DNA of 64,000 nt from Candidatus Falkowbacteria bacterium (GTDB lineage Bacteria > Patescibacteriota > Patescibacteriia > UBA11705 > JACRDX01), in NCBI GenBank assembly GCA_043798985.1, contig JAZDOE010000018.1:8057-72056 (forward strand), in the 5' to 3' direction. The translations under genes and the position numbers were made by a program. Under the pieces are notes generated by a model. The model searched no databases. It worked only from the letters and a program-made list of their open reading frames with translations, and was not told the DNA's origin. This document shows positions 42,090 through 62,549 of the stretch, in pieces; within the stretch, counting starts at the first letter, position 1, and every line of letters starts with the position of its first letter.

Positions 42090-42587
42090 ATGCGTTATTC
42101 CAATAAACAACAACTTGAACAAAAGTATAAAGAAAAGTTGGAAACAGCGAAATTGGATGATCGCGAAATGTTTGAATTAAAAAAGGACATGGAAGAATAT
42201 AAACAAGATAAAATCAAAAAAGCGGGAAAGCGCGGCCGCAAGAACGCTATTAGATTTTATTGCGGAGCAATATTTTTGGTGATATTTCTTGCGGCCGTTG
42301 GTTTAATTTTTTATTTTTATCTGCAAATCAAAGACAATTTGGCCGAAGAATTTTTAAAACAAAAAGAGGCTTTGCCTCAAAATGTTGAGCAGCTGCAAAA
42401 TACGATTACTGACGCGCAAGAAAAAATAAACGCGGCATACGCAACTTATCAAGAAGCGAAAAAGACCTACGAAGAATTGAAAGCAATAAAAAATGCCAGC
42501 GTGGAAAAAATAAATCAAGCAAAAGCGCTTATGGATCAAGCAAGCGTGGCGCTTGAGAATGTCAAATTGCAAATGTCAAATCAATAA
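42090..42587 (+). CDS. Hypothetical coiled-coil protein with one TM helix
   Basis: 165-aa ORF with charged heptads and one hydrophobic helix. Confidence 0.35.
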   Translation: MRYSNKQQLEQKYKEKLETAKLDDREMFELKKDMEEYKQDKIKKAGKRGRKNAIRFYCGAIFLVIFLAAVGLIFYFYLQIKDNLAEEFLKQKEALPQNVEQLQNTITDAQEKINAAYATYQEAKKTYEELKAIKNASVEKINQAKALMDQASVALENVKLQMSNQ

Positions 42588-42618
42588 CAAATTCCAAATG
42601 TCAAAATCAAAATTTATG
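42557..42618. repeat. Intergenic motif family A (AATGTCAAA / TTTGACATT units), copy upstream of rsmI in reverse orientation
   Basis: Three AATGTCAAA units within 62 nt. Confidence 0.5.
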
Positions 42619-43254
42619 TTATATATAGTCGCAACGCCAATCGGAAATTTAAAGGACATTACTTTGCGCGCGGTGGAAGTTTTAAAGAGCGTTGACATTG
42701 TTTTTTGCGAAGATACGCGGCAGACAAAAAAGCTACTGGATCATTATCAAATTGATAAGAAAATGATAAGCTTGCATCAGCATTCCAGCGACGAAAAAAT
42801 CGCAGGGTTACTGCGACAGTTTGAAAATATTGCCTATGTCACAGATGCTGGCACGCCCGGAATTTCTGATCCTGGCAATCGTTTGGTTGAAATCGCAATT
42901 CAACTTAATGTCGCGATTTGTCCGATTCCCGGACCATCAGCCGCAATAGCCGCTCTTTCTGTCGCAGGATTCGCGACTGACAAATTTTTGTTTCTGGGTT
43001 TTTTGCCAAAAAAAGGACAACAAAAAGTTTTTGAAAAAATAAAAAATTCCGACTGCGCGGTTTGTTTTTACGAATCACCGCACAGAATTCTTAAAACTCT
43101 CGGCGCGTTGGAAAAAGTGCTTGAACCAACCCGGCAAATGGTTATTTGCAGAGAATTAACGAAAAAATTTGAAACAATTTACCGAGGAACAGCCGAAGAA
43201 TTGTTAAAACAAGTTAAACCCAAAGGCGAATTTGTCATAATCATTGCACCATAA
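42616..43254 (+). CDS. rsmI: 16S rRNA (cytidine1402-2'-O)-methyltransferase RsmI
   Basis: LYIVATPIGNLKDITLRAVEVLKSVDIVFCEDTRQTKKLL. The alternative ATG at 42598 lies inside the intergenic repeat motif. Confidence 0.75.
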   Translation: MLYIVATPIGNLKDITLRAVEVLKSVDIVFCEDTRQTKKLLDHYQIDKKMISLHQHSSDEKIAGLLRQFENIAYVTDAGTPGISDPGNRLVEIAIQLNVAICPIPGPSAAIAALSVAGFATDKFLFLGFLPKKGQQKVFEKIKNSDCAVCFYESPHRILKTLGALEKVLEPTRQMVICRELTKKFETIYRGTAEELLKQVKPKGEFVIIIAP

Positions 43255-43265
43255 TAATTTTTGCT

Positions 43266-44741
43266 ATGAAAAAATTCTATATCACAACTACTTTGCCGTA
43301 CGTTAACGCTGATCCGCACATTGGTTTTGCTTTGGAAATTGTGCAAGCTGACGCTATTGCCAGATACCAACGTCTGCTTGGTAAGGAAGTAATTTTTAAT
43401 ACAGGCACAGATGAACATGGCTTGAAAATTTATCGCAAGGCATTGGAAAACAAAGAGGAACCACAGCAATATTGCAATAGATACGCGGCAAAATTTGACG
43501 CGTTGAAACAGGCGTTGAATTTGAGCTACACCAATTTTATCCGCACCACAGACACACACCACATGGCCGCGGCACAGGAATTTTGGCGGCGGTGTTTAAA
43601 AAACGATGATATTTATAAAAAAAATTACAAAATCAAATATTGCGTCGGATGTGAATTGGAAAAAACCGATTCAGAATTAGTTGATGCTAAATGTCCTTTG
43701 CATCCGAATTTAGAATTAGAAGTAATTGAAGAAGAAAATTATTTTTTTAAATTTTCTAAATTTCAAAAATCATTATTAAAATTTTACGAGAAAAATTCCA
43801 GTTTTGTCATTCCAACCAACCGTTTACAAGAAATTAAAAATTTTGTGGAAAGGGGATTGAAGGACTTCAGTATTTCTCGCTTGAAAATAAAAATGCCTTG
43901 GGGCGTGTCAGTGCCGAACGATGAAGAGCAAGTGATGTATGTGTGGTTTGACGCGTTGATCAACTATATTTCTACGCTTGGCTGGCCCAATGATGAGAAA
44001 AATTTCAAAAAGTTTTGGCCGGGCGTGCAAGTGGCTGGTAAAGACAATCTGCGCCAACAGAGCGCCATGTGGCAGGCGATGTTGATGTCTGCTGGATTGC
44101 CAAATTCTGAACAGATTTTTATACATGGTTTTATTACTTCGGACGGACAAAAGATGAGTAAGTCTCTCGGAAATGTAGTTGATCCGTTTGAAATTGTGAA
44201 AAAATATGGAACAGATGCCACGCGCTATTTTTTGCTTGGTGGCTTGCCATCTTATGATGACGGCGATTTTACCATTGCCAGGTTTGAAGAATTTTACACT
44301 GCCAATCTTGTCAATGGCATAGGAAACCTCACTTCCCGCATTTTGACAATGTTGGAAAAATATTCTGATAACAAAATTCCAGCCAAAGCAAAAGGGCTTT
44401 TGGATATTGATAGTTTTTGGCAAAGCTATGATGTCGCGTTTCGCAATTTTGAATTTGATAGCTTAATTGAAATCATCAACAATTTAGTGGCCAAATGCGA
44501 TAGTACTATTTCTGAACAAAAACCATGGGAAAAAGCCAAAAAAGGCGAGAACGTTTCTGTTCTGCTTTATCAATTGGCGGAAACTTTGCGCCATCTCGCT
44601 GTCGCGTCGCTTCCAATTATTCCAGAATCAGCCGAAAAAATACTGCAACAACTTAACACAGAAGACAAAACGCATTCTTGGGGGAAATTGAGCAAAGGCA
44701 ATGTCATCAAAAAGAGCGAGATATTGTTTCCCAGATTATAA
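43266..44741 (+). CDS. metG: Methionyl-tRNA synthetase (short form)
   Basis: FYITTTLPYVNADPHIGFA matches the HIGH region. KMSKSLGN is the KMSKS motif. Confidence 0.9.
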   Translation: MKKFYITTTLPYVNADPHIGFALEIVQADAIARYQRLLGKEVIFNTGTDEHGLKIYRKALENKEEPQQYCNRYAAKFDALKQALNLSYTNFIRTTDTHHMAAAQEFWRRCLKNDDIYKKNYKIKYCVGCELEKTDSELVDAKCPLHPNLELEVIEEENYFFKFSKFQKSLLKFYEKNSSFVIPTNRLQEIKNFVERGLKDFSISRLKIKMPWGVSVPNDEEQVMYVWFDALINYISTLGWPNDEKNFKKFWPGVQVAGKDNLRQQSAMWQAMLMSAGLPNSEQIFIHGFITSDGQKMSKSLGNVVDPFEIVKKYGTDATRYFLLGGLPSYDDGDFTIARFEEFYTANLVNGIGNLTSRILTMLEKYSDNKIPAKAKGLLDIDSFWQSYDVAFRNFEFDSLIEIINNLVAKCDSTISEQKPWEKAKKGENVSVLLYQLAETLRHLAVASLPIIPESAEKILQQLNTEDKTHSWGKLSKGNVIKKSEILFPRL

Positions 44742-44751
44742 AGCACGTAAA

Positions 44752-44803
44752 TTTTGACATTTGGATTTAATTTGACATTTTAATTTTGATATTTGAAATT
44801 TAC
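44752..44803. repeat. Intergenic motif family A copy upstream of cvpA
   Basis: TTTTGACATTTGGATTTAATTTGACATTTTAATTTTGATATTTGAAATTT. Confidence 0.55.
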
Positions 44804-44809
44804 AAACGT

Positions 44810-45313
44810 ATGTTGCTATTTGACTACATTTTGCTCGGTGCATTGTTACTTTTCGTGTTTTACGGTTTTCGCGCCGGCTTTATACAAAGTGTCGGCGCGC
44901 TAATCGGCTTGGTCGTTGGTTCAGTTTTTGCCAGCCGTTATTTTGAGGCAATCGGCAATATTCTCGGCGGCTCAAATTTGATGAAAATGCTGGCGTTTTT
45001 CATCTTGTTCGGGTTGATCACAAAACTGATTGGTTTTGTTTTCAAAATAGTCGGTAAAATTTTCAAAATTATTACAGTTTTACCGCTTTTGGCACAGTTG
45101 GACAAATTGTTGGGCGCGATTTTCGGGGCCGCCGAAGGTATTTTATTTTTGGCGATCATGTTATTTTTCTTGTCAAAATTCCCAATCAGCGCGTGGCTTA
45201 CGAATTCAATGGGCGCTTCAATTATCACGGCAACATTATTAAAAATCTCCGCGATATTCATGCCGCTATTTCCAGTCGCGATCAAACAAATAGAAACATT
45301 AATCAAAAAATGA
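44810..45313 (+). CDS. cvpA: CvpA-family membrane protein
   Basis: MLLFDYILLGALLLFVFYGFRAGFI is a CvpA-like N-terminus, followed by 4 TM helices. The ORF track gives 44786. Confidence 0.6.
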   Translation: MLLFDYILLGALLLFVFYGFRAGFIQSVGALIGLVVGSVFASRYFEAIGNILGGSNLMKMLAFFILFGLITKLIGFVFKIVGKIFKIITVLPLLAQLDKLLGAIFGAAEGILFLAIMLFFLSKFPISAWLTNSMGASIITATLLKISAIFMPLFPVAIKQIETLIKK

Positions 45314-45314
45314 A

Positions 45315-46148
45315 ATGATTGACACGCACGCGCATGTAAATTTCAATGCGTTCAAAAAAGATTCAGATGAAGTTATAAAAAGGGCATTATTAAACAACGT
45401 CACGATTATTAATGTTGGCGCACAATTTACAACAAGCACTCGCGCAGTTGTTTTTGCGGACGACTATGCTAATTGTTTTGCCGCGGTTGGTTTGCATCCG
45501 ATTCATTTGCAAGACATGACAATTGAAGAAGAGGGCGTAAGTTTTACAACTAGAAAAGAAAATTTTTCATACGAAGATTATAAAAAAATGGCGAGTCAAC
45601 CCAAAGTTGTGGCAATTGGCGAAACTGGTTTAGATTATTGGCATTTGAACGATCAAGAGCCGTTGGAAATCGCGATTGAAAGACAAAAAAAAGTGTTTCA
45701 CGAACATATTAAATTGGCAAATGAATTAAACCTGCCAGTAATCGTTCACTGTCGGGGGGCAAATGGCAACATGGATCCAGCTTATGTTGAAGTTTTGGAA
45801 GAATTAACAAAACAACCGCCAAAAAACGGGGGAGTAATGCATTGTTATGGCGGACCAATTGATTTGGTTGAGAAATTTACAAAACTTGGACTTTATATTA
45901 GTTTCAATGGAATTCTAACTTTTGATAAAACCGGAAAACTTGCGGAAATTTTAGCCGCAACGCCAGACAATAGAATTTTAGTTGAAACAGATTGTCCATA
46001 TTTGACGCCAGAACCGTATCGTAGCAAGCGCAATGAACCTGCGTTTGTTGAATTGGTCGTGCAAAAAATCGCCGCGATAAAAGGTGTGCCGTTTGATGAA
46101 GCTGACAAACTGACAACAACTAACGCGAAACGACTATTTGCAATATAA
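45315..46148 (+). CDS. tatD: TatD-family metal-dependent hydrolase
   Basis: MIDTHAHVNF, GETGLDYW, HCRGA and ETDCPYL metal-ligand motifs. Confidence 0.8.
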   Translation: MIDTHAHVNFNAFKKDSDEVIKRALLNNVTIINVGAQFTTSTRAVVFADDYANCFAAVGLHPIHLQDMTIEEEGVSFTTRKENFSYEDYKKMASQPKVVAIGETGLDYWHLNDQEPLEIAIERQKKVFHEHIKLANELNLPVIVHCRGANGNMDPAYVEVLEELTKQPPKNGGVMHCYGGPIDLVEKFTKLGLYISFNGILTFDKTGKLAEILAATPDNRILVETDCPYLTPEPYRSKRNEPAFVELVVQKIAAIKGVPFDEADKLTTTNAKRLFAI

Positions 46149-46151
46149 AAA

Positions 46152-47906
46152 ATGCCAATTTACTCGCCAAAACCATTCGTTTCTACCTATGAAAATAAAC
46201 GGGCGCTAATTCTGCTTATTTTTTTTATTATTTTTGCGGTGGCAATTATCATCAGACTTTTTGATTTACAAATAATCAAACACAATTATTTTGCCGCGCT
46301 CGCTGAAGACCAGCACGAGATTTTTAAAAAACTTGTGCCGGAGCGCGGCGAAATTTTTTGTCATAATAGCGCGAGCGACCCATTTGCCATTTATCCTTTG
46401 GCAATAAATCGCGATGTTTATTTGGTTTACGCTGTTCCGACTTTGATTACAAACGCGGAACAAACTTTAAAAAAGCTTGAATCAGTTTTATTGCTGGCAA
46501 ACGTTTCGCGCGAACAATTATTAGCGCGACTGAACAAGCAAAATGATCCGTATGAACCGATTTTAAAACGCGTTGAAGAAGAACAAATCAAACAATTGGA
46601 AGAACTCAACATTGCTGGCATAAAATGGCTTAAAGAAAAAGGCAGATTTTATCCGGAAAACAATTTGGCTTCGCACATTCTTGGTTTTGTGAACCAAGCG
46701 GACAATCAGGAAACCGGCGCGTATGGGCTTGAAGCATATTACAACAAAGAACTCACCGGCGTGCCCGGATTTTTGCGCGGCGAAGTTGGCAACCTTGGCA
46801 ATTTTATCGCGCTTGGCCAGCAAGACGTGGTGCCAGCTGAAAATGGCGCGGACGTTATTTTAACAATAGACAAAAACATTGAATTTTTCAGTTGCAAAGA
46901 ATTGGCAATAGCGGTGAGAGAATTTGAAGCTGACAATGGCTCTTTGATTGTGATGGAGCCGCAGACCGGAAAAATTTTGGCAATGTGCAATGCGCCTGAT
47001 TTTAATCCAAACAAATACAATGAAGTTGAAAGCGTTAAAGATTTCACAAATTCAGCCATAAGCGTCGCGTACGAGCCGGGTTCTATTTTTAAGCCTGTGA
47101 CGATGTCAGCGGCAATAGAAGAAAAAGCCGTCACGCCTGAAACAACATATCAGGATCCCGGGCAAATCAAAATTTCTGATTTTACAATTTACAATTATGA
47201 CAAAAAATCTCACGGCACGCGCACAATGACGCAGGTGCTTGAAGAATCGCTGAATACTGGCGTTGTTTTTGCCGGTCGTAAAATTGGAATTGAAAAATTT
47301 ACAGAATATGTAAAAAAATTCGGCATGGGCGCAAAAACAAAAATTGACATGTTCAATGAAGCTGTTGGCAATATTGCGTCCTTAAACAAAAAACATGAGC
47401 TTTACATGGCAACAGCGTCGTTTGGACAGGGGATTATGACAACGCCTTTGCAAATGGTTTCCGCCTACTCGGCAATTGTGAACAACGGCAAATTGATGCG
47501 GCCATATATTGTTGAAGAATTGCGCTTTGACAATAAACCAGCGCAGATTACACAGCCGCAGGTCGTCAGACAGGTGATTTCGCCTGAAACAGCGAAAAAA
47601 GTCGCGGCAATGCTGGTTTCTGTTGTAAACAATGGCCACGCGAAAAACGCCAAGATTCCCGGCTACCTTGTCGGCGGAAAAACAGGCACAGCTCAAATTG
47701 CTGATCCAAATTCTGGAAAATATAGCGAAAATGTCACGCATTCTTTTGTGGAGTTTGCGCCGTTCAACAACCCTAAGTTTGTATTAATTGTAAAATTGGA
47801 AAACGTTAAAAAAGTAAAATACGCGGAAAGTTCAGCTTTGCCAACGGCAACAAAAATCGCGAAATTCATTTTGGATTATTACGCGGTTGAGCCGGAAGTG
47901 AAATAA
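46152..47906 (+). CDS. Penicillin-binding protein 2 / FtsI-type peptidoglycan D,D-transpeptidase
   Basis: N-terminal TM. The transpeptidase motifs SxxK, SxN and KTGT are present (GSIFKP, SLN, GGKTGTA). Confidence 0.8.
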   Translation: MPIYSPKPFVSTYENKRALILLIFFIIFAVAIIIRLFDLQIIKHNYFAALAEDQHEIFKKLVPERGEIFCHNSASDPFAIYPLAINRDVYLVYAVPTLITNAEQTLKKLESVLLLANVSREQLLARLNKQNDPYEPILKRVEEEQIKQLEELNIAGIKWLKEKGRFYPENNLASHILGFVNQADNQETGAYGLEAYYNKELTGVPGFLRGEVGNLGNFIALGQQDVVPAENGADVILTIDKNIEFFSCKELAIAVREFEADNGSLIVMEPQTGKILAMCNAPDFNPNKYNEVESVKDFTNSAISVAYEPGSIFKPVTMSAAIEEKAVTPETTYQDPGQIKISDFTIYNYDKKSHGTRTMTQVLEESLNTGVVFAGRKIGIEKFTEYVKKFGMGAKTKIDMFNEAVGNIASLNKKHELYMATASFGQGIMTTPLQMVSAYSAIVNNGKLMRPYIVEELRFDNKPAQITQPQVVRQVISPETAKKVAAMLVSVVNNGHAKNAKIPGYLVGGKTGTAQIADPNSGKYSENVTHSFVEFAPFNNPKFVLIVKLENVKKVKYAESSALPTATKIAKFILDYYAVEPEVK

Positions 47907-47998
47907 ATTTCAAATATCAAATTACAAATGTCAAAGTTTGGAATTTGATATTTGACATTGATTTGATATTTGACATTTGAGCTTTGAAATTAATTGTG
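47907..47998. repeat. Intergenic motif family A, inverted double copy upstream of murF
   Basis: AAATTTCAAATATCAAATTACAAATGTCAAA in reverse orientation, followed by TTTGATATTTGACATTGATTTGATATTTGACATTTGAGCTTTGAAATT in forward orientation. Confidence 0.55.
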
Positions 47999-48012
47999 CT
48001 ATATTTGATGGC

Positions 48013-49308
48013 ATGAAAAAAATCCTGTGTTTGATTCTACGATTTTTCGCGAAGTGCGTTATTCATAAATACGCGCCGGTTGTTATTGGCATTACAGGCA
48101 GTGTTGGTAAAACTTCAACAAAAGAGGCGATTTTTACTGTTTTGCGAAAAAAATGTCCCAACCTTAGACAAAATATAAAAAATTATAACAATGAAATCGG
48201 CTTGCCGCTTACGATCATTGGCGCTGACACCGGCAATGCAAATCCAATCGCGTGGCTAAGGGTTTTTGCTAAGGCAATCGGGTTGTTGTTAAAATTTGAC
48301 GTGAATTATCCGACAATTTTAATTTTGGAAATGGGAGCTGATAAACCAAATGACATTGAATATTTAATAAAGATCGCGCCGTGCCAAATCGGGGTGTTAA
48401 CAAAAATCGGCACGGCGCACATTGAGTTTTTTGGTTCAATTGAAAAAATCGCTGAAGAAAAACAAAAAATAATTTCTCATTTGGATTCAAGCGGTTTTGC
48501 AATTGTAAATTTTGATGACGCGCGCGCACAAAAGGCATTGAAAAACACAAGCGCCCAAATAATCACTTTTGGAATCAACGAGGGCGCTGACGTGCGCGCG
48601 CTGGAATCAACAATGCAGAACTCTGCCTCATCGGCAGACAAGAACTGCAACTTGGGTTTAAGTTTCAAATTGAATTATAAAGGTTCAAGCGTTCCTGCTT
48701 TTTTGCCAAACATTATTGGCGCGCATCAAATTTACCCGGCGCTCGCCGCGACTGGCGTCGGGCTCGCGCTTGGAATGAACCTCATTGAAATTTCCGAAGC
48801 TTTGCGTAATTATTTGCCGCCAAAGGGTCGGATGAATTTGATAGAAGGAATCAACGATTCAACAATCATTGATGACACTTATAATTCGTCGCCAGAAGCC
48901 GCGATTTCGGCGATTGAAACTCTCGCGCAAATGAAGTTCAACGGAACTGGTCGCAAAATCGCCGCGCTTGGCGACATGTTGGAGCTTGGCGATTCAACTG
49001 AAAAAAGTCATTATGACATTGGCAAATTTTGCGCCGAACAAAAAATTGATGTTTTGATTTGTTCCGGAAAATTCGCGGAAATGACAAAACGCGGAGCAGT
49101 AGAGCATGGCCTGGAATTGGGTCAAGTGTTCGTTGTGGATAACTCTGTTGCTACTGGACAATTGCTAAAAAACATGATAAAAAATGATGACATTGTATTG
49201 ATAAAAGGTTCGCAAGGAAGCCGCATGGAAAAAGCTGTAAAGGCTGTCATGTTAGCACCGGAAAAAGCAGGAAAATTGCTGGTTCGGCAAGAATCAGGCT
49301 GGTTGTAA
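48013..49308 (+). CDS. murF: UDP-N-acetylmuramoyl-tripeptide--D-alanyl-D-alanine ligase
   Basis: VVIGITGSVGKTSTKE P-loop. DDTYNSSPEAAISAIETL...GRKIAALGDMLELGD is the MurF C-terminal motif. Short N-terminal region. Confidence 0.8.
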   Translation: MKKILCLILRFFAKCVIHKYAPVVIGITGSVGKTSTKEAIFTVLRKKCPNLRQNIKNYNNEIGLPLTIIGADTGNANPIAWLRVFAKAIGLLLKFDVNYPTILILEMGADKPNDIEYLIKIAPCQIGVLTKIGTAHIEFFGSIEKIAEEKQKIISHLDSSGFAIVNFDDARAQKALKNTSAQIITFGINEGADVRALESTMQNSASSADKNCNLGLSFKLNYKGSSVPAFLPNIIGAHQIYPALAATGVGLALGMNLIEISEALRNYLPPKGRMNLIEGINDSTIIDDTYNSSPEAAISAIETLAQMKFNGTGRKIAALGDMLELGDSTEKSHYDIGKFCAEQKIDVLICSGKFAEMTKRGAVEHGLELGQVFVVDNSVATGQLLKNMIKNDDIVLIKGSQGSRMEKAVKAVMLAPEKAGKLLVRQESGWL

Positions 49309-49319
49309 AAATTAAACGC

Positions 49320-49394
49320 GCCGGGTTCGTCTAGTGGTTAGGACATTAGGTTCTCAACCTAAGAACACGGGTTCGATTCCCGTACCCGGTACCA
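49320..49394 (+). tRNA. trnE: tRNA-Glu (anticodon CTC)
   Basis: Manual cloverleaf. Acceptor GCCGGGT/ACCCGGT. D-stem GTCT/GGAC. Anticodon stem TTAGG/CCTAA with loop TTCTCAA. T-arm ACGGG-TTCGATT-CCCGT. Discriminator A followed by an encoded CCA. Confidence 0.85.
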
Positions 49395-49403
49395 AATGGG
49401 TTC

Positions 49404-49434
49404 TCGCCCTTCGGGCGACCACCCGCAGGGTGGG
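49404..49434 (+). other. Two tandem GC-rich hairpins immediately 3' of tRNA-Glu
   Basis: TCGCCC-TTC-GGGCGA (49404-49418) and CCACCC-GCA-GGGTGG (49419-49433). The same GC-hairpin style as the intragenic palindromes. Confidence 0.5.
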
Positions 49435-49460
49435 ACACCCCTTGGCGGTACCAAAAATAC

Positions 49461-49485
49461 AGAAATCTCATCGGTTTCTTTTTTT
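49461..49485 (+). terminator. Rho-independent terminator downstream of tRNA-Glu
   Basis: AGAAATC-TCATC-GGTTTCT stem followed by TTTTTT. Confidence 0.45.
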
Positions 49486-49575
49486 GTTAGTTTAGGCTAA
49501 TTTTGCTTATTTTTTTATTAAGCTTGCTATATTTTTATAATTATGCTAAGTTGAATTGTTCTTCACTAGAACTGT

Positions 49576-50189: not shown

Positions 50190-50227
50190 CCCCTTGCGGA
50201 CAAACCGTCTGCGAGGGGATTTTTTTG
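50190..50227 (+). terminator. Rho-independent terminator
   Basis: CCCCTTGCGGAC-AAACC-GTCTGCGAGGGG (12-bp stem including two G-U pairs) followed by ATTTTTTT. Confidence 0.55.
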
Positions 50228-50332
50228 GTTATTGACTTTTAATAAAAAACGTGCAAATATTATTACAGATTCAGCGGAAATACCGCGGAACCTTAACAAC
50301 CTCAGATTGTCCCATGGGGACAGGAGGGTCGC

Positions 50333-51097: not shown

Positions 51098-51120
51098 TCC
51101 GCGGACTGTGACCAACAAGG

Positions 51121-51148
51121 AGAGAGCTAAAAGTTCTCTCCGTTTTTT
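51121..51148 (+). terminator. Rho-independent terminator closing the GC-rich insert
   Basis: GGAGAGA-GCTAAAAGT-TCTCTCC followed by GTTTTTTTT. Confidence 0.6.
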
Positions 51149-51206
51149 TTAACAAACATTAACATTTCATTTTGGGGATAGTTGTGATATTATATGTCTA
51201 TAAAAT

Positions 51207-52355: not shown

Positions 52356-52621
52356 CTTTGCGTTGTTAGCGCGCTATACTGAACTAAGATAAATAACTAA
52401 AATTTATGTTTGGATTTTTTGAAAAACAAGCTACTGAAAAGGCGGGGTTCACGAGTCAAGAAAGCGCAAGATTAAAAGAGAGTTGTAAAACGCCAGAGCA
52501 AACAACTACTGCCGAACTTTTTGGCGCAAGCTCCGAGTTCCTAGAGAAACGCTTACGCGCTTAATTTAATATTTGCAGATTCGTAACATTTGTAAGATTC
52601 GTAGGTTCGTAGCCATAACTT

Positions 52622-52897
52622 ATGACAAAAATTGAACAAATTGACATTATAATCGCGAAACTTGATGTTGATATAAAAGATGAATCAAAAACACTGATGG
52701 CTGATTTTTTTCGGTCAATTCAGGACCAGCCGCTTTTTGACAAAATGGTTGACCTGCTCAACCGATTCCCGTCGGTTTTAGATAATTTTGCCAAATGTTT
52801 TCAGGATAAAATCGGGTTTTTCAAAAGCAATGGCGCTGATACTGATTGGCAAAAAATCATTGATGTTGAAAAACAAGCGATAGAGAATATTCAATGA
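52622..52897 (+). CDS. Hypothetical protein
   Basis: 91-aa ORF with no motif. Confidence 0.3.
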   Translation: MTKIEQIDIIIAKLDVDIKDESKTLMADFFRSIQDQPLFDKMVDLLNRFPSVLDNFAKCFQDKIGFFKSNGADTDWQKIIDVEKQAIENIQ

Positions 52898-52928: not shown

Positions 52929-52968
52929 ACCCACCAAAAGCTTACGCATTTAGGTGGGTTGTTTTTTT
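52929..52968 (+). terminator. Putative terminator upstream of lexA
   Basis: ACCCACC...GGTGGGT stem (17-nt loop) followed by TGTTTTTTT. Confidence 0.4.
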
Positions 52969-53039
52969 ACTTAGAAAAACAAAGTTATCCACACTTGCTG
53001 TTCTTGTTCGCTTTTTGTTCGGTGGTATAATAGTAATAT

Positions 53040-54865: not shown

Positions 54866-54877
54866 GACAATTCTGTC

Positions 54878-55806: not shown

Positions 55807-55808
55807 AT

Positions 55809-57065
55809 ATGAAAATAGCGAAAATTTGGGCGCAGGAAATTTTAGATTCGCGCGGCAATCCGACTGTTGAAGCTTTTGTTAAACTTGAAAACAAAATGAT
55901 TGCCAGCGCGAGTGTGCCGTCCGGCGCGTCAACCGGCGTTCACGAAGCATTGGAATTGCGCGATAATGACAAAAAACGCTATGGCGGCAAAGGCGTTTTG
56001 ATTGCCGTGAAAAATATTGAAGAAAAAATCGCGCCGGAATTAAAAGGAATTAACGTCACACATCAGAGAACCGTTGACGCGCTCATGTTAAAATTGGACG
56101 CGACCAAAAACAAATCAAAATTAGGCGCCAACGCAATTCTAGCGGTTTCGCTAGCATGTTGTCGCGTTGGCGCGGCCAGCCTTAATTTGCCGCTATACAA
56201 ATATATCCGCGCGACCTATGGCTTAAAAGAGCGCGGATGGAAATTTCCAATTCCAACGATGAACATTATCAATGGCGGCAAACACGCGGACAATTCGCTT
56301 ACTGTTCAGGAATTTATGATTGCTCCGATTGCCAAAACTTTTACAAAAAGAATGCAAATCGGCGATGAGGTTTTTCAGACGTTGAAAAAATTATTGAAAG
56401 AAGCTGGCCAGCAAACATTGGTTGGCGACGAAGGCGGCTTTGCCCCTAACCTCAAGAAAAACGAGAATGCACTTGATTTTATTATCACAGCAATAAAATC
56501 AGCTGGTTACAAACCCGGTAAAGATGTTTTTTGCTGCGTTGATTTGGCGCTGTCTGAATATTTTGACAAAAAAACCAACAGCTACTCGTTAAACGACAAG
56601 TTAGGTAAAAAATTTATTTCCGCTGACGCTGTAATCAAAACAATTAGCGCGTGGACTAAAAAATATCCGATTTTGTCACTTGAAGATCCGCTCGCAGAAG
56701 ATGATTGGGACAATTGGCAAAAATTAACAAAAAAACTTGGCAAAAAAGTGACGCTGGTCGGCGACGATTTGTTTGTCACAAACACACAACGTTTACAAAA
56801 AGGCATTGACGCGAAAATCGCCAACGCGATTTTAATCAAACTCAATCAAATCGGCACGCTTTCTGAAACCATTGATGCCATTTATCTTGCGAAAAAGAAT
56901 AATTACAAAGTAAGCGTTTCGCATCGCTCTGGCGAAACGTGCGACACATTTATCGCAGATTTGGCGCTGGCAGTGAACGCTGATTTTATAAAAGCTGGCT
57001 CTTTGTCGCGCTCCGAAAGACTTTGCAAATATAACAGACTACTAGAAATAGAGAATGAATTATAA
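55809..57065 (+). CDS. eno: Enolase
   Basis: ILDSRGNPTVEA, SVPSGASTGVHEALELRD, IKLNQIGTLSETI. Confidence 0.9.
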   Translation: MKIAKIWAQEILDSRGNPTVEAFVKLENKMIASASVPSGASTGVHEALELRDNDKKRYGGKGVLIAVKNIEEKIAPELKGINVTHQRTVDALMLKLDATKNKSKLGANAILAVSLACCRVGAASLNLPLYKYIRATYGLKERGWKFPIPTMNIINGGKHADNSLTVQEFMIAPIAKTFTKRMQIGDEVFQTLKKLLKEAGQQTLVGDEGGFAPNLKKNENALDFIITAIKSAGYKPGKDVFCCVDLALSEYFDKKTNSYSLNDKLGKKFISADAVIKTISAWTKKYPILSLEDPLAEDDWDNWQKLTKKLGKKVTLVGDDLFVTNTQRLQKGIDAKIANAILIKLNQIGTLSETIDAIYLAKKNNYKVSVSHRSGETCDTFIADLALAVNADFIKAGSLSRSERLCKYNRLLEIENEL

Positions 57066-57068
57066 TTT

Positions 57069-58670
57069 ATGAAAACAAATAAGTTGGTTGCACTTATTAT
57101 TTTGGATGGCTGGGGCATTGCTCCGCCCAACGATGGAAACGCGATTGCTCTCGCGAAAACTCCATATTTTGATCAGCTGATTAGCCGCTATCCAACGCGC
57201 ACGCTTTTGGCGTCTGGCGAGGCCGTTGGTTTGTCTTGGGGCGAAATGGGAAATTCAGAAGTCGGGCACCTTAATCTTGGCACCGGCAGAATTTTTTACC
57301 AAAATTTGCCACGCATTGACAAAGCAATTAGCGACAAAAGTTTTTTTGAAAATCCGCAATTTTTAGGCGCGATTGAACACGTGAAACAAACAAATGGCGA
57401 TTTGCATTTGCTCGGAATTTTAAGCGAAGGCCGCGTGCATGGCATGTTGTCTCATCTTTACGCACTGCTGGATCTTTGTAAAAAAGAACATTTTAAAAAA
57501 GTTTACATTCACGGATTTCTTGACGGAAGAGACACGATTTACAATAGTGGCGCGGATTTTGTAAAAGAATTACAAGAAAAAATTGACGAGATTAAAGTTG
57601 GCGAAATCGCCAGTTTGTGCGGCCGGTTTTACGCGATGGATCGGGATAGACACTGGGAAAGAACAGAAAAAGCTTATCGCGCGATTATTGAAGGCAAAAG
57701 TGAAGCATACGCGAAAAACGCAGTCAGCGCGATTGACGCGTCTTACCACAAAAAAGTTTTTGACGAAGAATTTGTGCCGGTTGTTATCGGTTCCGCGCAA
57801 AAGCCCGTAGCAACAATTAAAAATGGCGATTCTGTAATATTGTTTAACTATCGTTCTGATCGCGCGAGACAATTGGCAGAAGCATTAACAAACCCTAAAT
57901 TTGACAAATTTGAGCGCGTCCCTATGGCAGACATTTTCGTTGTCAGCATGACAGAATACGAAACCCCGAAGGGGTCCCCTTCGGGGACCAATAATAACAT
58001 CCATGTCGCGTTTCCCAAAGAACCTGTAAAAACATGTTTGGCAAAAACACTTAGTGAAAACAAAATAAAACAATTGCACGTCGCGGAAACGGAAAAATAC
58101 GCGCATGTCACTTTTTTCTTTAACGGCGGCAAGGAGGAGCCGTATCCAATGGAATCACGAATTATGATCCCATCGCCGCGCGTTTCATCCTACGCGGAAA
58201 TTCCGGAAATGTCTGCAAAAAAAATCAGCGACGCGCTTGAGCAGGAAATTTTGAAAGAAAATATAAATTTTATTGTTGTCAACTATGCAAATCCGGATAT
58301 GGTTGGACACACCGGCGACTTAAAAGCGGTTATAAAAGCGGTTGAAACCACTGATAAACAATTGGAACGCGTTATAAATTTAATTTTATCAAAAAAAGGC
58401 ATCGCGCTTATTGTTGCTGACCATGGCAATGCCGAGGAAATGATAAATTTGCAAACAGGCGAAATTGATAAAGAGCACAGCACAAATCCAGTTCCGTTTA
58501 TTGTTATCGGAGAAGAATTTGAAGGAAAATTATTGGAAACAGAAGAAGCAATTGGTCGTGATTTGAGTTTACTGCGACCGTCCGGTATTCTTAGCGACTT
58601 GGCGCCGACGATTCTGAAACTTTTGAACATTAAACGTCCGAAAGAAATGAGCGGGCAAGACTTATTGTAA
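57069..58670 (+). CDS. gpmI: 2,3-bisphosphoglycerate-independent phosphoglycerate mutase
   Basis: LIILDGWGIAPP, GNSEVGHLNLGTGR, ADHGNAE. Contains the palindromic insert at 57964-57986. Confidence 0.85.
   Translation: MKTNKLVALIILDGWGIAPPNDGNAIALAKTPYFDQLISRYPTRTLLASGEAVGLSWGEMGNSEVGHLNLGTGRIFYQNLPRIDKAISDKSFFENPQFLGAIEHVKQTNGDLHLLGILSEGRVHGMLSHLYALLDLCKKEHFKKVYIHGFLDGRDTIYNSGADFVKELQEKIDEIKVGEIASLCGRFYAMDRDRHWERTEKAYRAIIEGKSEAYAKNAVSAIDASYHKKVFDEEFVPVVIGSAQKPVATIKNGDSVILFNYRSDRARQLAEALTNPKFDKFERVPMADIFVVSMTEYETPKGSPSGTNNNIHVAFPKEPVKTCLAKTLSENKIKQLHVAETEKYAHVTFFFNGGKEEPYPMESRIMIPSPRVSSYAEIPEMSAKKISDALEQEILKENINFIVVNYANPDMVGHTGDLKAVIKAVETTDKQLERVINLILSKKGIALIVADHGNAEEMINLQTGEIDKEHSTNPVPFIVIGEEFEGKLLETEEAIGRDLSLLRPSGILSDLAPTILKLLNIKRPKEMSGQDLL
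57964..57986. repeat. GC-rich palindrome CCCCGAAGGGG-T-CCCCTTCGGGG inside gpmI
   Basis: Identical to the queA element apart from a central T. It encodes PKGSPSG. Confidence 0.8.
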
Positions 58671-59087
58671 AAATAAAATGTACAAAGCCGGAATTGCCAT
58701 GCCTGCCACAAAACCCCAAACAATTTCCCAAAAAGTATGCCCGATCCGCTCTTCCAGAAATTCGTATTTCGCGCCCTCTGTTGGCGCTAAAACATGGACG
58801 GTCTTATTAATAAAATTCGCATGTTTGCCGATAATGCGCCGCAAAACACCAGCATCCCAGATTATTAAAATCGCCAAAACCAACGCGATAGCAAAGTCAG
58901 ATGAATTTAGTCCATGATAATAGCCGATTAACGTGGCAAGACAAACAACAAGCGCAGTATGTGACGATGGCATGCCTCCCGGAGAAAAAAAGTCTCGCCA
59001 ACTGAATTTGTTCTTTAATCCGTGCAATGTGCCTTTAATAATTTGGACGATGATCAGTGTCGCGAGCGGAACGATTACGAATACCAT
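58662..59087 (-). CDS. Divergent PAP2 / DUF212 membrane protein (YuiD-like)
   Basis: GGMPSSHTALVVCLATLIGYYHG core of the DUF212 family. Confidence 0.6.
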   Translation of the reverse strand: MVFVIVPLATLIIVQIIKGTLHGLKNKFSWRDFFSPGGMPSSHTALVVCLATLIGYYHGLNSSDFAIALVLAILIIWDAGVLRRIIGKHANFINKTVHVLAPTEGAKYEFLEERIGHTFWEIVWGFVAGMAIPALYILFLQ

Positions 59088-59119
59088 AAAGTTATAAATA
59101 CGAATACCCGCTTCGCCAT

Positions 59120-59215
59120 AGCTTCAGCGAGGCGAGTCGAAATACGAAACAAATTAGAAATCAGAATGTCCCAATATTGAATCATTGTGATTTCGTGCTT
59201 CAAATTTCGAGCTTC
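59120..59215. repeat. Intergenic repeat family B (copy 2), in the divergent region between DUF212 and manC
   Basis: 59163-59201 AGAATGTCCCAATATTGAATCATTGTGATTTCGTGCTTC. About 85% identical to copy 1, in the same orientation. Confidence 0.5.
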
Positions 59216-59236
59216 TTTGTTAATATATCATCAAAT

Positions 59237-60376
59237 ATGAATTTTGTCATTTTGGCGGGAGGCGGTGGAACGCGCTTGTGGCCACTAAGCAGAGAAAGCA
59301 AGCCCAAACAATTCACAAAATTATTCGGCAATAAAACGTTGATTGAGCTAACCTATGAACGTTTGCGCAAAATCGCGCCGCCGGAGAAAATTTTTGTTAT
59401 CTTAAATAAAAATCTGTTAAGTTTGGCAAAAAAATTCCTTCCGCAAATTTTGATTCGCAATTACATTATTGAACCTTCGCGCAGAGACACAACCGCGGCA
59501 TTTGGTTTGGCATGCGCAAAACTTTTCAACATCGCTCCTGACGAGCCTGTCGCGTTTATTCCGTCCGATCACTTTATTGGCGACACAAAATTGTTTTGCA
59601 AAACATTACAAACCGCGGAAACATTAATAAATAAAACGCAAAAGCTTGTTGACATTGCCGTTTTGCCAACGTTTCCAAGCACAGCGCTTGGCTATACCAA
59701 AATTGGCAAATTGGTCAATAACGAGAATTGCCCGCTTCGGCTCGCGCAGAGCAAGGCGAGCATTGAAATTTTTTCTTTTTTGGGACACAAAGAAAAACCA
59801 AACTTTGATAAAGCAAAAAAATATATTCAAAGCGGAAAATATCTTTGGCACGCCAGTTATTACATGTGGACGCCAAGAAAATTTTTAGAGGCTTTTGAAA
59901 AATATTCACCAAATAATTATAAATTTATAAAACAGATGGCGCGCGCGTTGCGATCCGCCCCGGGCGGAGAAGCAATCTCCGGCGCGCGCAAAAACATTAT
60001 TGAAAATGCTTTTAACAAAATAACCCCTCAATCGCTGGATTACACCATCACGGAAAAAATAAAACCCAGCGAAGTTTTGATAATCAAAGGAAGTTTTGGA
60101 TGGAGCGACGTGGGCGCTTTTGATGTTTTATATGACGCGCAGAAAGCAACGGCTGACACAAATGGCAATGTGAGCCACGCGAATTTTGTCGCCATGGACA
60201 GTTCACATTGCCTTGTCTATGGAATTAAAAATAAGCCAATCGCCGCGATTGGCGTCAATAACTTAGCAATTATTGATACTCCGGACGCACTTTTGATTTG
60301 CCCTTTGAATCGCGGCCAAGAAGTGAAAAAAATAATAACACAAATAAAAATTCAAAAGAAAACCAACCATCTATGA
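59237..60376 (+). CDS. manC: Mannose-1-phosphate guanylyltransferase
   Basis: MNFVILAGGGGTRLWPLSRESKPKQF. The nucleotidyltransferase domain has ManC-like downstream motifs. The ORF-track start at 59177 lies in the intergenic repeat. Confidence 0.7.
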   Translation: MNFVILAGGGGTRLWPLSRESKPKQFTKLFGNKTLIELTYERLRKIAPPEKIFVILNKNLLSLAKKFLPQILIRNYIIEPSRRDTTAAFGLACAKLFNIAPDEPVAFIPSDHFIGDTKLFCKTLQTAETLINKTQKLVDIAVLPTFPSTALGYTKIGKLVNNENCPLRLAQSKASIEIFSFLGHKEKPNFDKAKKYIQSGKYLWHASYYMWTPRKFLEAFEKYSPNNYKFIKQMARALRSAPGGEAISGARKNIIENAFNKITPQSLDYTITEKIKPSEVLIIKGSFGWSDVGAFDVLYDAQKATADTNGNVSHANFVAMDSSHCLVYGIKNKPIAAIGVNNLAIIDTPDALLICPLNRGQEVKKIITQIKIQKKTNHL

Positions 60377-61035
60377 TGCTTAAGGAATTTTTTTTCGCGC
60401 TACCAAGCTTTATAAACAGTTTGCCAGAACACGGATATTTGATTATTTTAGCGTTTTCCATTCTTGAGGCATTGGCATTTGTCGGAGTTTTGTTTCCGGG
60501 AACAATCATCGTAATCATTCTTGGCTTTTTTTCATTTTTAAAATATTGGAATTTTGCCGCGGTATTTTTCTTAATTTTTATTGGCGCTGTTATTGGCGAT
60601 ACTTTCAGTTTTTGGCTTGGCAAAAAATATGGCATAAACATCCTCGCAAAACTTAGCAAATATCGTCTTTATAGATTCTTGGGGCTAGACTTAGCCGCTG
60701 AATTTTTAGGCAGTAATGAACGCAAAAGCATTATTATTGGTCGTCTGATTGGCCCTTCGCGCGCGTTCACGCCGTTTTTGGTTGGAGCGGTTGGCATGCG
60801 CTTTAGAAAGTTTCTCAACGCTGACATTTTGAGCGTTTTTTTATGGTCAATTTTATACTTGGGAATTGGCGCGATGTTTGGCTCGTCAATGCCTTTGATT
60901 GAAAAATTAATAGACCACGTTGAATCTTTATTTTTATTTTTCATCGGCATAATTTTATTGTCTTCGTTCATTGCAAAACTTGTTTTCAAACGACCATTGC
61001 AAAAAGAAATTCGGAATCCTGAAACTATAAACTAG
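60373..61035 (+). CDS. DedA/VTT-domain membrane protein
   Basis: GYLIILAFSILEALAFVGVLFPGTIIVIILG is the DedA core. ATGA overlap with the manC stop. Confidence 0.7.
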   Translation: MMLKEFFFALPSFINSLPEHGYLIILAFSILEALAFVGVLFPGTIIVIILGFFSFLKYWNFAAVFFLIFIGAVIGDTFSFWLGKKYGINILAKLSKYRLYRFLGLDLAAEFLGSNERKSIIIGRLIGPSRAFTPFLVGAVGMRFRKFLNADILSVFLWSILYLGIGAMFGSSMPLIEKLIDHVESLFLFFIGIILLSSFIAKLVFKRPLQKEIRNPETIN

Positions 61036-61038
61036 AAA

Positions 61039-61995
61039 TTGGGGTTTATGCTTTTCAAAAAAAGAACACTGATAATTTTATTGATTATCGTCGGCACGTT
61101 GCTTGTAATAAATTTTCGGTTTGGCTGGCATCGGGATATTGGCATTGCGCAAACGTTTGTAATTGAAAAAGGGCAGGGATTGTCTGAAATCAGCGACGCG
61201 CTGGCGCAGAAAAAAATTATTAAACGCCCGCTTGGCTTTAAAATTTATGCAGTTTTAACGGGCAATTACGACAATTTGCTGGCCGGCAAATTTTTTTTAC
61301 CGCAAAAAATCAGCATAAAAGATTTGATGAAAATTTTGACAAATGAAAAATTCATGCAACTTGAAACCGAAATAACGATTATTGAAGGCTGGAACAAAAA
61401 CGAAATCGCTGATTATTTGGAACAAAAACAATTGGTTGACAAAAAAACGTTTTTAAAAGCAGCTAATGATTTGGAAGGATTTTTATATCCTGACACTTAC
61501 AGAATTTATCAGGCGACAACAGCCGACGAGATTATCAAAAAAATGCTGGATAATTTTAACACCAAACTGACCATTGATTTGAAAAACAAAATTGAGCAAC
61601 AGCACAAAACAATTCCGCAAATTCTGACAATGGCAAGTATTATTGAAAAAGAAATGACCGGCTTGGAAAATCGCAAAATCGCTTCCGGAATTTTTTGGAA
61701 AAGAATCAAACAGGGGATTCCATTGCAATCTGACGCGACAATAAATTTCATCACGCAAAAAGGCATGACTCAACCCAATTACGTTGACCTAAAAATTGAC
61801 AGCCCCTATAACACCTACAAAAATTATGGCCTGCCACCCGGACCGATTTGCAATCCGGGCCTTGAAGCGATTATCGCATCAATTGAGCCAACCGCGAGCC
61901 AATATTATTATTTTTTAACAACCAAAACAGGTGACGTGATTTTCAGCAAAACCTATGAAGAACATTTGAAAAACAAGCAAAAATATTTAAACTAA
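61039..61995 (+). CDS. mltG: Endolytic murein transglycosylase MltG (YceG-like)
   Basis: N-terminal TM. ITIIEGWNKNEIADYL, and GLPPGPICNPG at the C-terminus. Confidence 0.8.
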   Translation: MGFMLFKKRTLIILLIIVGTLLVINFRFGWHRDIGIAQTFVIEKGQGLSEISDALAQKKIIKRPLGFKIYAVLTGNYDNLLAGKFFLPQKISIKDLMKILTNEKFMQLETEITIIEGWNKNEIADYLEQKQLVDKKTFLKAANDLEGFLYPDTYRIYQATTADEIIKKMLDNFNTKLTIDLKNKIEQQHKTIPQILTMASIIEKEMTGLENRKIASGIFWKRIKQGIPLQSDATINFITQKGMTQPNYVDLKIDSPYNTYKNYGLPPGPICNPGLEAIIASIEPTASQYYYFLTTKTGDVIFSKTYEEHLKNKQKYLN

Positions 61996-62043
61996 AACCC
62001 CTTAACTTGCGAATAGCCGCGGGTTGCGATATAGTTAAAATAT

Positions 62044-62517
62044 ATGGAAAAAGATGAGATTTTAAGCTTGGCAATTGAACTTTTACGCGAGGAAGAAGAA
62101 TTTCTCGTGCCAATTTTAAAATTGCATACGCTGATTTTGGACGAGCAAGAAACCTGCGGACTGACCATTGAAGAACTGACAAAACTATTGAGCAATGACG
62201 ACCGCTTCTTTATTTTAGAAAGCCAAAGCACGCAAGAACCATGGGAAGACGATGATGATGACAAAATGGAAGCGCTTGGATTTTACAAAGGGCCACGAGC
62301 TATGCTGATGGAACGCAAACCAAGCAAAGATGAATTGAGCGCTGCAATCAAAGAATCAATGCAACAAATGCTTTATAGCCTGAAACAAGCGTATCACGTT
62401 GGGGACAATGACCCTGACGACACAGAAGAAACGGAATTTTTGCAGATTATGACAAAAGCACGCGATCTAGAACGCAAATTTGACGATGCTTTTCAGGAAA
62501 CAGAAAAAGACACCTAA
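62044..62517 (+). CDS. Hypothetical acidic protein
   Basis: 157-aa Glu/Asp-rich ORF. Confidence 0.3.
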   Translation: MEKDEILSLAIELLREEEEFLVPILKLHTLILDEQETCGLTIEELTKLLSNDDRFFILESQSTQEPWEDDDDDKMEALGFYKGPRAMLMERKPSKDELSAAIKESMQQMLYSLKQAYHVGDNDPDDTEETEFLQIMTKARDLERKFDDAFQETEKDT

Positions 62518-62549
62518 TTTTGACATTTGAAATTTGATATTTGAAATTT
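62518..62549. repeat. Intergenic motif family A copy upstream of the GT1 gene
   Basis: TTTGACATTTGAAATTTGATATTTGAAATTT is the 31-nt core, nearly identical to the reverse complement of 47907-47937. Confidence 0.55.

Follow-up and report, generated by a model that had tools for sequence, protein, structure and literature searches.

Two kinds of sequence built on repeated heptamers come close to the element considered here. The first is the intervening sequence (IVS) of ribosomal RNA (rRNA) genes. In Coxiella burnetii, the IVS is a 428-nt element in the 23S rRNA with a 28-bp terminal stem and an open reading frame (ORF) for S23p (PF05635); two to three tandem GACAGAT heptamers, whose number differs by strain, lie directly before the ORF start, and RNase III cuts this element out (PMC4990558). 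The second is the heptamer repeat found next to genes. For example, TAACTGA repeats abut start codons in Beggiatoaceae, Cyanobacteria, and Bacteroidetes (PMC4679880), TTTTGAA/TTCAAAA repeats have been described in the same position in Nostoc, and in Vibrio cholerae, TTTTGAT heptads to which ToxT, ToxR, and H-NS bind form the ctxAB promoter, a regulated one (bioRxiv 10.1101/2021.05.14.444153). In the account of Mrazek 2007 given in PMC4679880, heptanucleotides are the most frequent kind of long simple repeat in prokaryotes. The DNA analyzed here, called the window, is a stretch of 64,000 nucleotides from a Candidatus Falkowbacteria bacterium (contig JAZDOE010000018.1, positions 8,057 to 72,056), and it carries arrays of 7-nt ATTTGAN units in the spacers between its genes. 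The arrays belong to one family of arms, keep a fixed polarity, are placed between genes, are conserved in a close relative, change by a whole unit, and in other genomes bracket genes for four-helix-bundle proteins. With moderate confidence, the copies can be seen as the terminal arms of small inverted-repeat insertion elements, of which the window probably holds ORF-less or solo-arm derivatives.

Heptamer arrays in the window

A sequence-only reading of the window had noticed a recurrent motif before four genes, which it named rsmI, cvpA, murF, and GT1. The motif is present at all four sites, and Pfam confirms the gene names. At each site a 31-nt element, TTTGACATTTGnAATTTGATATTTGAAATTT, is made of ATTTGAN heptamers and the array has a period of 7 nt. 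With up to 3 mismatches, the full consensus TTTGACATTTGNAATTTGATATTTGAAATTT has three matches in the window, at 62519-62549 (+) and 47905-47935 (-) with 0 mismatches and at 44771-44801 (+) with 2, and it has none in any of 100 dinucleotide-preserving shuffles. A shorter core, TTTGAYATTTGA, allowed at most 1 mismatch, is matched 15 times vs 3.5 +/- 2.0 expected, a count that no shuffle reached. The arrays end 3 nt (rsmI), ~8 nt (cvpA), ~20 nt (murF), and 8 nt (GT1) before the ATG. An array is called an F arm where it reads (ATTTGNN)n and an R arm where it reads (NNCAAAT)n, both on the sense strand of the neighboring gene. Beyond the four sites, arrays at 9140-9171, 41961-42081, 52570-52612, and 59135-59215 had been missed. 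The arrays and the features they form are these:

62518..62549, plus strand: GT1 solo F arm of ATTTGAN heptamers, 0 mismatches to the 31-mer
47905..47937, minus strand: R arm of the ftsI/murF module, 0 mismatches to the 31-mer, conserved in a close relative (L065)
47940..47993, plus strand: F arm of the ftsI/murF module, forming an inverted pair with the R arm 47905..47937
47895..47985, plus strand: predicted long AU-rich RNA hairpin from the R and F arms, from folding against shuffles
47977..48005, plus strand: candidate murF promoter, TTGAGC-17-TATATT with TG extension, from a promoter scan and conservation in L065
44752..44803, plus strand: cvpA solo F arm, in the spacer from the metG stop 44741 to the cvpA ATG 44810
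42557..42612, minus strand: rsmI solo R arm with three TTGACAT units, ending 3 nt before the rsmI ATG 42616
9140..9171, plus strand: degenerate F arm (ATTTGAA ATTTGTA ATTTGGC ATTTGTT ATTT), a fifth copy
41961..42081, no strand assigned: R...F module of the CGAAAT/ATTTCG unit type, between the stop 41960 and the ATG 42090
59135..59215, no strand assigned: R...F module of the CGAAAT/ATTTCG unit type, with TATATC after it, 7 nt ahead of the ATG 59237
52570..52612, plus strand: array of ATTCGTA/GTTCGTA-type units, just ahead of ORF 52622-52897

The neighboring genes, as identified by Pfam, are these:

42616-43254: rsmI
43266-44741: metG
44810-45313: cvpA
45315-46148: tatD
46152-47906: PBP2/ftsI
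48013-49308: murF
62558-63769: GT1

The copy upstream of murF had been described as an inverted pair, and it is one (47905-47937 on the minus strand and 47940-47993 on the plus strand). The outer end of its R arm overlaps the ftsI stop TAA (47904-47906), and the inner end, ATGTCAAAG, matches a start-codon context of the cassette genes described below. The F arm has an irregular CATTGATTTGA junction that is found in many phyla, and its final units provide TTGAGC, a candidate -35 box for murF. The hairpin predicted from the two arms has a dG of -34.8 kcal/mol (z = -5.8), and 0/200 shuffles fold as well. Such long-stem inverted repeats are absent from the solo arms at the rsmI, cvpA, and GT1 sites; the RNAs of 62518..62549 and 42557..42612 are predicted to be unstructured. 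The regions of the two CGAAAT/ATTTCG modules give predicted folds as well, at 41958-42092 (dG -30.6, z = -2.9) and 59105-59250 (z = -2.0).

Several arrays press closely on the genes at either side. The GT1 arm begins 1 nt past the TAA of ORF 62044-62517 and is followed by the ATG at 62558, the arm at 9140 fills the spacer between the stop of gene 8207-9145 and the ugd ATG 9172, and the rsmI arm overlaps the 3' end of ORF 42090-42587 (last ~10 codons, ..ENVKLQMSNQ*). At least three forward tandem units ending a few nucleotides before a start, the pattern of heptanucleotide repeats, are found at 9140, 44752, and 62518. The units at 52570..52612 resemble those flanking a GxxExxY gene in another locus (L034). 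There are no rRNA genes in the window, and every copy lies between protein-coding genes and not in 23S rRNA helix 25 or 45. A search of the window with Rfam returned two tRNAs alone at the gathering score, and nothing meaningful at E <= 5 in 41900-48100.

Distribution and polarity of the arrays

Exact matches to a 23-mer of the motif were sought in one genome per species. The 23-mer is present in at least 119 genome stretches, and its hosts, among the matches listed, include many Patescibacteria lineages, Omnitrophota, Bacteroidota, Ignavibacteria, Deltaproteobacteria-type metagenome-assembled genomes (MAGs), WOR-3, Margulisiibacteriota, and others. It was not found in 2.9 million viral contigs. 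Orthologous genes of two Falkowbacteria aside, the arrays are the only DNA common to the window and these loci. For example, over 58 nt the window array 42557-42612 shares 86% identity with an array from Omnitrophota (L033), and whole modules of other lineages of the candidate phyla radiation (CPR) align to the ftsI/murF module at 77-79% over ~100 nt. A local duplication, which would have undone the sequence-only reading, does not explain a motif that recurs at orthologous sites of relatives and in all these other genomes. An archaeal occurrence was considered in a contig labelled Candidatus Pacearchaeota (L039), which carries two R-F modules, and was discounted; bacterial FabG, FabZ, FabK, and PlsC are encoded on this contig, which has probably been mis-binned into an archaeal MAG.

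The positional bias relative to genes, whose absence would likewise have undone the sequence-only reading, is strong. There are 221 arrays in 143 kb of intergenic DNA and 64 in 768 kb of ORFs (1.55 vs 0.083 per kb), a ~19-fold enrichment, and the polarity is strict. R arms start at a median of 6 nt past a stop codon, with the TAA often within the arm, and F arms end ~20 nt ahead of the next start. Among pairs of arms within 60 nt of each other, 36 are R then F and 0 are F then R. The settings include tandem, convergent, and divergent junctions (7/43 for convergent genes), and some arms adjoin canonical terminators. In an anchored profile of 117 copies, conservation continues one unit further and then ends abruptly at +30, so the 31-mer is the sharp outer end of an arm. 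F arms have TGA in all three frames; R arms have no stops and contain ATG, which is why ORFs extend into them, and the motif copies inside called ORFs are antisense in 25 cases and sense in 7.

This arrangement could be that of bidirectional, AU-rich terminators of the host, of which the single arms would be decayed remains. With R before F, an order never seen reversed, the stem has an A-rich 5' flank and a U-rich 3' flank whichever strand is read; modules are found at operon boundaries and convergent junctions, and their hairpins are strong. However, a consensus promoter/terminator scan, which does not discriminate in the AT-rich DNA of the window, reports none of the arrays as terminators, the stems are not GC-rich and lack a U tract, solo arms are unstructured, and no selection for complementarity of the arms is seen. 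Canonical terminators, with a GC-rich hairpin and a T tract, are found in the window at 3160-3204, 40845-40875, 50190-50235, 51120-51150, and 52935-52985, and elsewhere some adjoin the arms themselves. Because such terminators are used at other junctions, the genome does not depend on heptamer hairpins for termination, and a terminator role for the arms is quite improbable.

Association with four-helix-bundle and GxxExxY genes

The 735 ORFs in the loci selected by the motif were compared all against all and clustered. One cluster, of ~125-aa proteins, is TIGR02436 "four helix bundle protein"/PF05635 "23S rRNA-intervening sequence protein" (S23p, bAvd-like), and a second is TIGR04256, the GxxExxY proteins. 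PF05635 is an abundant and structurally solved family to which, as far as we know, no function has been assigned. The four-helix-bundle genes are enclosed by an R...F pair, with the ATG within the R arm (ATGTCAAAT = M-S-N) and the F arm past the stop, as seen in 5/6 motif-selected loci. When 597 ORFs are ranked by the complementarity of their flanks, nine of the ten four-helix-bundle or GxxExxY genes are among the top 19. The link reaches into the window, since the 31-mer of the GT1 site is 100% identical over 30 nt to an arm that holds the start codon of a four-helix-bundle gene (L123).

The same arrangement is seen in an independent sample of 80 metagenome loci that were picked by protein similarity alone, 75 of them with both flanks. 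Upstream, at least 3 R units are present in 48 of the 75 and F units in 0; downstream, at least 3 F units are present in 52 and R units in 5. Both an upstream R and a downstream F array occur in 37/75. The gaps from R to F cluster at 336-515 nt, surrounding the ORF, and ORF-less R-F modules co-occur on these contigs.

Inverted heptamer arrays of other units likewise bracket the GxxExxY genes and those four-helix-bundle genes that are more divergent. The GxxExxY genes are in L034, L051, L106, and L107, and the other four-helix-bundle genes are in L034 (5833-6189), L104 (6325-6708), and L121 (11355-11747). Each gene has one unit of its own, these being ACGAACT, ACGCAGA, GCTAATT, TGCGAAT, ACTTACA, ATTGGTA, and AAAGCGA-like. 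Such gene-specific units hint at cognate pairs of protein and array. Modules may also hold something else. In bacterium CG2_30_37_16 (L043, 4474-4978 and 5251-5658), two related ~330-nt inserts between R and F arms are each bracketed by canonical terminators, and no ORF is evident in them; here the same kind of module may carry a non-coding cargo or the gene of a small RNA.

Conservation in related Falkowbacteria

The PBP2 of the window is 90% identical to that of another Candidatus Falkowbacteria MAG, whose contig (L065) aligns with window 44751-49391 at 82% nucleotide identity. Its arrays stand at the same junctions as in the window, before cvpA and between ftsI and murF. The cvpA arrays of the two differ by an indel of exactly one 7-nt unit, and the array of L065 is preceded by an R arm; the cvpA arm of the window is solo. 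In a further Falkowbacteria contig (L057), the R arm before rsmI is retained. Between the window and L065, 291/490 four-fold degenerate sites of cvpA, tatD, ftsI, and murF are identical (59%), compared to 92/106 positions of the ftsI/murF spacer (87%) and 74/82 of its array part (~90%). Because the spacer and the array are more alike than the four-fold sites, the comparison indicates that the arrays are under constraint, that is, purifying selection.

These figures also bear on the simplest explanation, that the arrays are chance low-complexity sequence or the product of neutral replication slippage in AT-rich spacers. Repeats of seven nucleotides, after all, outnumber the other long simple repeats of prokaryotes in the report of Mrazek 2007 that PMC4679880 cites, and one whole-unit indel is seen here. 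However, the observed counts are reached in 0/100 shuffles, identical 23-31-mers with a sharp boundary occur across phyla, and neutral repeats would not be conserved at 90% where four-fold sites are at 59%. Chance or slippage is hardly credible, and is effectively refuted already.

More distant Falkowbacteria (L120 and L121/L122, with PBP2 identities of 55% and 47%) have no arrays at ftsI/murF or across 10-14 kb, and their ftsI/murF junction carries ordinary promoters. Since these relatives are without them, the arrays are a lineage-specific acquisition. Array content differs among close relatives as well. At 4620-4676, where murF gives way to tRNA-Glu, L065 carries a 45-nt array of ATTGAAA type that is absent at window 49309-49319, a gain or loss of an array. 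In the window (region 49320-49480), as in L065 (4677-4749), murF is followed directly by tRNA-Glu, and a tRNA gene also follows murF in L120 and L121. On the 3' side of the window tRNA-Glu is a GC-rich stretch that closes with the tRNA 3' end once more (GGTACCAAAAA), and a similar duplicated 3' end is found in L121 (region ~9800-10120); the duplication may be the scar of an integration into the tRNA gene. The genes rsmI and metG are only 11 nt apart in the window; in L057 a 143-aa ORF with a Nudix-box-like motif (7146-7577) lies between them. It was considered as a cassette and rejected, with no arrays beside it and a motif that looks like that of a Nudix hydrolase.

A proposed family of cassettes between genes

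In the insertion-element explanation, an arm would be a run of 7-nt ATTTGAN units with a sharp conserved outer end of ~31 nt. A full element would open with an R arm that contains the ATG of a PF05635 four-helix-bundle gene of ~125 codons, and would close with an F arm after that gene. This would be the architecture of the ORF-bearing 23S rRNA IVS, relocated to the spacers between protein-coding genes. The derivatives in the window would then be one ORF-less R-F hairpin of the ATTTGAN type (ftsI/murF), two ORF-less hairpins built on another unit, and a number of solo arms. Cassettes and ORF-less derivatives may spread as selfish or horizontally mobile units, as suggested by their patchy occurrence, by arms that are nearly identical in different phyla, and by a presence that depends on the lineage. 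When co-transcribed, paired arms could fold into a stem of at least ~26 bp that RNase III would cleave, separating the flanking cistrons. The outward-facing TTGACA-like units of the F arms might also be co-opted as -35 boxes of leaderless promoters, for example, at murF. Among the candidates of the sequence-only reading, a family of dispersed repeats akin to repetitive extragenic palindromes (REPs) or miniature inverted-repeat transposable elements (MITEs) is the best supported, because ORF-less and ORF-carrying versions both exist and the outer end is sharp. The widespread inverted-repeat family is neither a system of REPs with REP-associated tyrosine transposases (RAYTs) nor a set of MITEs derived from a transposase gene.

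Several observations weigh against this explanation. No transposase and no pair of empty and occupied sites was found, and the ends of 71 cassettes are fuzzy, with no consistent direct repeat of the kind left by target-site duplication; the case for mobility is therefore the patchy distribution across phyla. Solo and paired arms are equally common, an unusual ratio for MITEs. At variable positions, the complementarity of arms within a module is 0.669 vs 0.667 +/- 0.025 for arms of different modules, and since the arms of one module are not extra-complementary, the R-F hairpin may be a side effect of the unit sequence that they have in common. Processing by RNase III is suggested purely by analogy with rRNA IVSs. 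A tblastn search of the 64-kb window found no four-helix-bundle or GxxExxY gene, for which reason its copies are classed as ORF-less derivatives and not as full members. Another difficulty is that purifying selection on the arrays, as read from the alignment with L065, argues for a host-level function and not for junk DNA.

Such a function could lie in binding. The arrays might be the sites of a sequence-specific nucleic-acid-binding protein, likeliest the enclosed pentameric four-helix-bundle protein, and would then make up a regulon or a form of punctuation and not a mobile element. The related bAvd proteins do bind nucleic acid, and the gene of the protein would sit between its own sites in the way that RAYT genes sit between REPs. 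The unit varies with the enclosed four-helix-bundle protein (ATTTGAN, ATTGGTA, ACTTACA, GACAGAT), and there are four other units for GxxExxY. The polarity relative to genes, the selection on arrays far from any four-helix-bundle gene, and the lack of co-adaptation between the two arms of a pair would all fit. However, common descent of whole elements would produce the same co-variation of unit and protein, and the window, with its many arrays, is without a gene for the protein. Binding sites that are not part of a mobile element seem an unlikely account of the arrays. An operator for a global regulator, as the sequence-only reading had also suggested, appears to survive only in this form, as binding of the arrays by the enclosed four-helix-bundle protein.

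The cassette explanation could be carried one step further. Four-helix-bundle (S23p/Avd-like) and GxxExxY proteins would each recognize their own heptamer arrays and together represent an unrecognized class of selfish cassettes without a transposase, a proposal that is tentative and on the doubtful side. If it is true, the pairing of protein and array would resemble that of RAYTs and REPs, with ORF-less progeny filling intergenic spacers across many phyla. The same system would also lie behind the ORF-bearing rRNA IVSs and the TAACTGA, short tandemly repeated repetitive (STRR), and Nostoc TTTTGAA repeats.

Promoters, leaderless transcripts, and translation

The sequence-only reading had held the motif to be too close to the start codon for a -35/-10 layout. 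This is wrong, as the arrays are 30-50 nt long and an upstream unit lies at about -38. At murF, a spacer of 17 nt separates TTGAGC from a TG-extended TATATT, this candidate -10 box ends 7 nt ahead of the ATG 48013, and the combination passes the promoter scan; L065 retains TGTTATACT at the same distance from the murF ATG as this candidate promoter. Promoter co-option of F arms is a plausible secondary role, to which the layout at murF points. Most window genes are without a Shine-Dalgarno (SD) sequence, and a number of them carry a -10-like hexamer, in many cases with a TG extension, that stops 7-9 nt short of the ATG (noted upstream of the ATGs 4124, 48013, 53040, 59237, and 62044). These features point to widespread leaderless transcripts in this Falkowbacteria genome. 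A literature search on CPR promoters and leaderless transcripts returned nothing specific.

One could consider this role the primary one, the arrays being stacked sigma-70-type promoters that drive leaderless transcripts in the manner of the V. cholerae ctxAB TTTTGAT heptads, an experimentally studied precedent (bioRxiv 10.1101/2021.05.14.444153). The 7-nt period automatically sets TTGACA 17 nt before GANATT. The result is TTGACA-N17-GAAATT-N9-ATG at cvpA (TTGACA at 44772) and GT1 (at 62520), and the module 41961..42081 ends in CAAATT-N9-ATG ahead of ORF 42090. At murF, the last array unit supplies the -35 box, and L065 conserves the -10 box with its TG extension. Canonical -10 boxes elsewhere in the window likewise end 7-9 nt before an ATG, and ordinary promoters occupy the ftsI/murF junction of the distant relatives. 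However, reverse arms begin 0-8 nt past stops and would fire antisense, and arrays are found between convergent genes (7/43 junctions) and beside canonical terminators. GAAATT is only a 3/6 match to TATAAT, cvpA and GT1 fall below the threshold of the scan, and the scan does not single these sites out. The distance from TTGACA to ATG has no common peak across loci or phyla, and the enclosed four-helix-bundle genes are left unexplained. Promoters as the main function of the arrays are unlikely. The leaderless promoter elements that the sequence-only reading proposed thus hold up as a co-opted role, for which murF has the layout, and not as what the arms primarily are, given the arms after stops, in convergent junctions, and at terminators.

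Forward arrays could also act in the messenger RNA (mRNA), as translational enhancers or substitutes for the SD sequence, which has been proposed for TAACTGA in Beggiatoaceae (PMC4679880). They abut the starts of genes in a genome almost without SD sequences, and the solo arms are unstructured and AU-rich. In phyla that use SD sequences, however, the arrays lie upstream of a separate SD (L003, L009, L017), reverse arms follow stops, and arrays also stand in convergent junctions. Of course, if the transcripts are leaderless, the array is outside the mRNA altogether. A translational role is very unlikely.

Significance for genome annotation

The four-helix-bundle family and the heptamer families beside genes, which have been described repeatedly without explanation, are linked by this finding. 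The same 7-nt arrays bracket PF05635 genes and, without a gene, mark the boundaries of housekeeping operons in CPR, Omnitrophota, Bacteroidota, and other phyla. The arrays also matter for the annotation of compact uncultured genomes. Reverse arms, free of stops and containing ATG, lead to false N- or C-terminal extensions of ORFs, and the TTG in forward arms leads to false start calls, such as the "ORFs" 44786.. and 62534..

Comparison with known systems

In the literature searched, no link of heptamer repeats to four-helix-bundle genes and no obligatory R-then-F architecture is described, and a search with the motif sequence string returned nothing relevant. DNA-uptake sequences, integron attC sites, operators of CtsR, Spo0A, or MraZ, Rho rut sites, and the -33/-7 promoter geometry of Bacteroidetes as a general explanation were considered and dropped as inconsistent in unit sequence, spacing, or distribution.

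The systems of REPs, BIMEs, or REPINs with RAYTs resemble the heptamer elements in being short intergenic repeats near stops, with inverted hairpin pairs, a gene flanked by its own repeats, and a patchy distribution. However, the REP is a GC-rich imperfect palindrome and the unit here is a non-palindromic tandem 7-mer, and the gene flanked by heptamer arms encodes a TIGR02436 or TIGR04256 protein and not a Y1 HUH transposase. A direct link to RAYTs was rejected, as the only RAYT found is flanked by unrelated GC-rich REPs; it is a 157-aa Y1_Tnp (IS200-like) gene of Candidatus Shapirobacteria (L052, 2600-3370) between tandem copies of GGGTTTGGGCAAGCCAAACCCC.

Correia elements (CREE/NEMIS) are intergenic, 60-110 bp long, and bounded by terminal inverted repeats; neighboring genes are transcribed together with them, RNase III cuts their hairpins, and their ends can supply promoter elements. 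The heptamer elements share the intergenic placement and the terminal inverted repeats, and probably the behavior of the RNA, with these and other MITEs. They differ in having periodic arms that are near-identical across phyla, no target-site duplication that could be detected, and no transposase parent. Their longer form encodes only the ~125-aa four-helix-bundle protein, in place of the transposase expected of the parent of a MITE.

The heptanucleotide repeats (TAACTGA, TTTTGAA, TTTTGAT, and the cyanobacterial STRR) are similar in the arm itself. Here as there, tandem 7-nt units end a few nucleotides before starts, forward copies have stops in three frames, reverse copies are tolerated in the ends of ORFs, unit number is polymorphic, and the distribution crosses phyla. 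Only the ctxAB heptads among them have defined binding proteins (ToxT, ToxR, and H-NS). The reports on these repeats are of direct repeats only, unlike the obligatory R-then-F order, sharp outer end, and enclosed four-helix-bundle gene seen here.

The rRNA IVSs of Coxiella burnetii, Leptospira, and Xanthomonas are similar in the element as a whole. They differ in lying in 23S rRNA helix 25 or 45 and not between protein-coding genes, and the arms here are almost wholly heptamers of a different unit (ATTTGAN), with the start codon inside the arm and solo arms common. Excision by RNase III, with no re-ligation, belongs to the rRNA IVSs, as in Coxiella, and would extend to heptamer-armed elements by analogy only. 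In both, terminal inverted repeats make a long stem around a PF05635 ORF, and tandem heptamers stand in the arm before the ORF start in variable number, here by the 7-nt indel between the window and L065. In both, too, short ORF-less versions exist and a sporadic distribution suggests horizontal spread.

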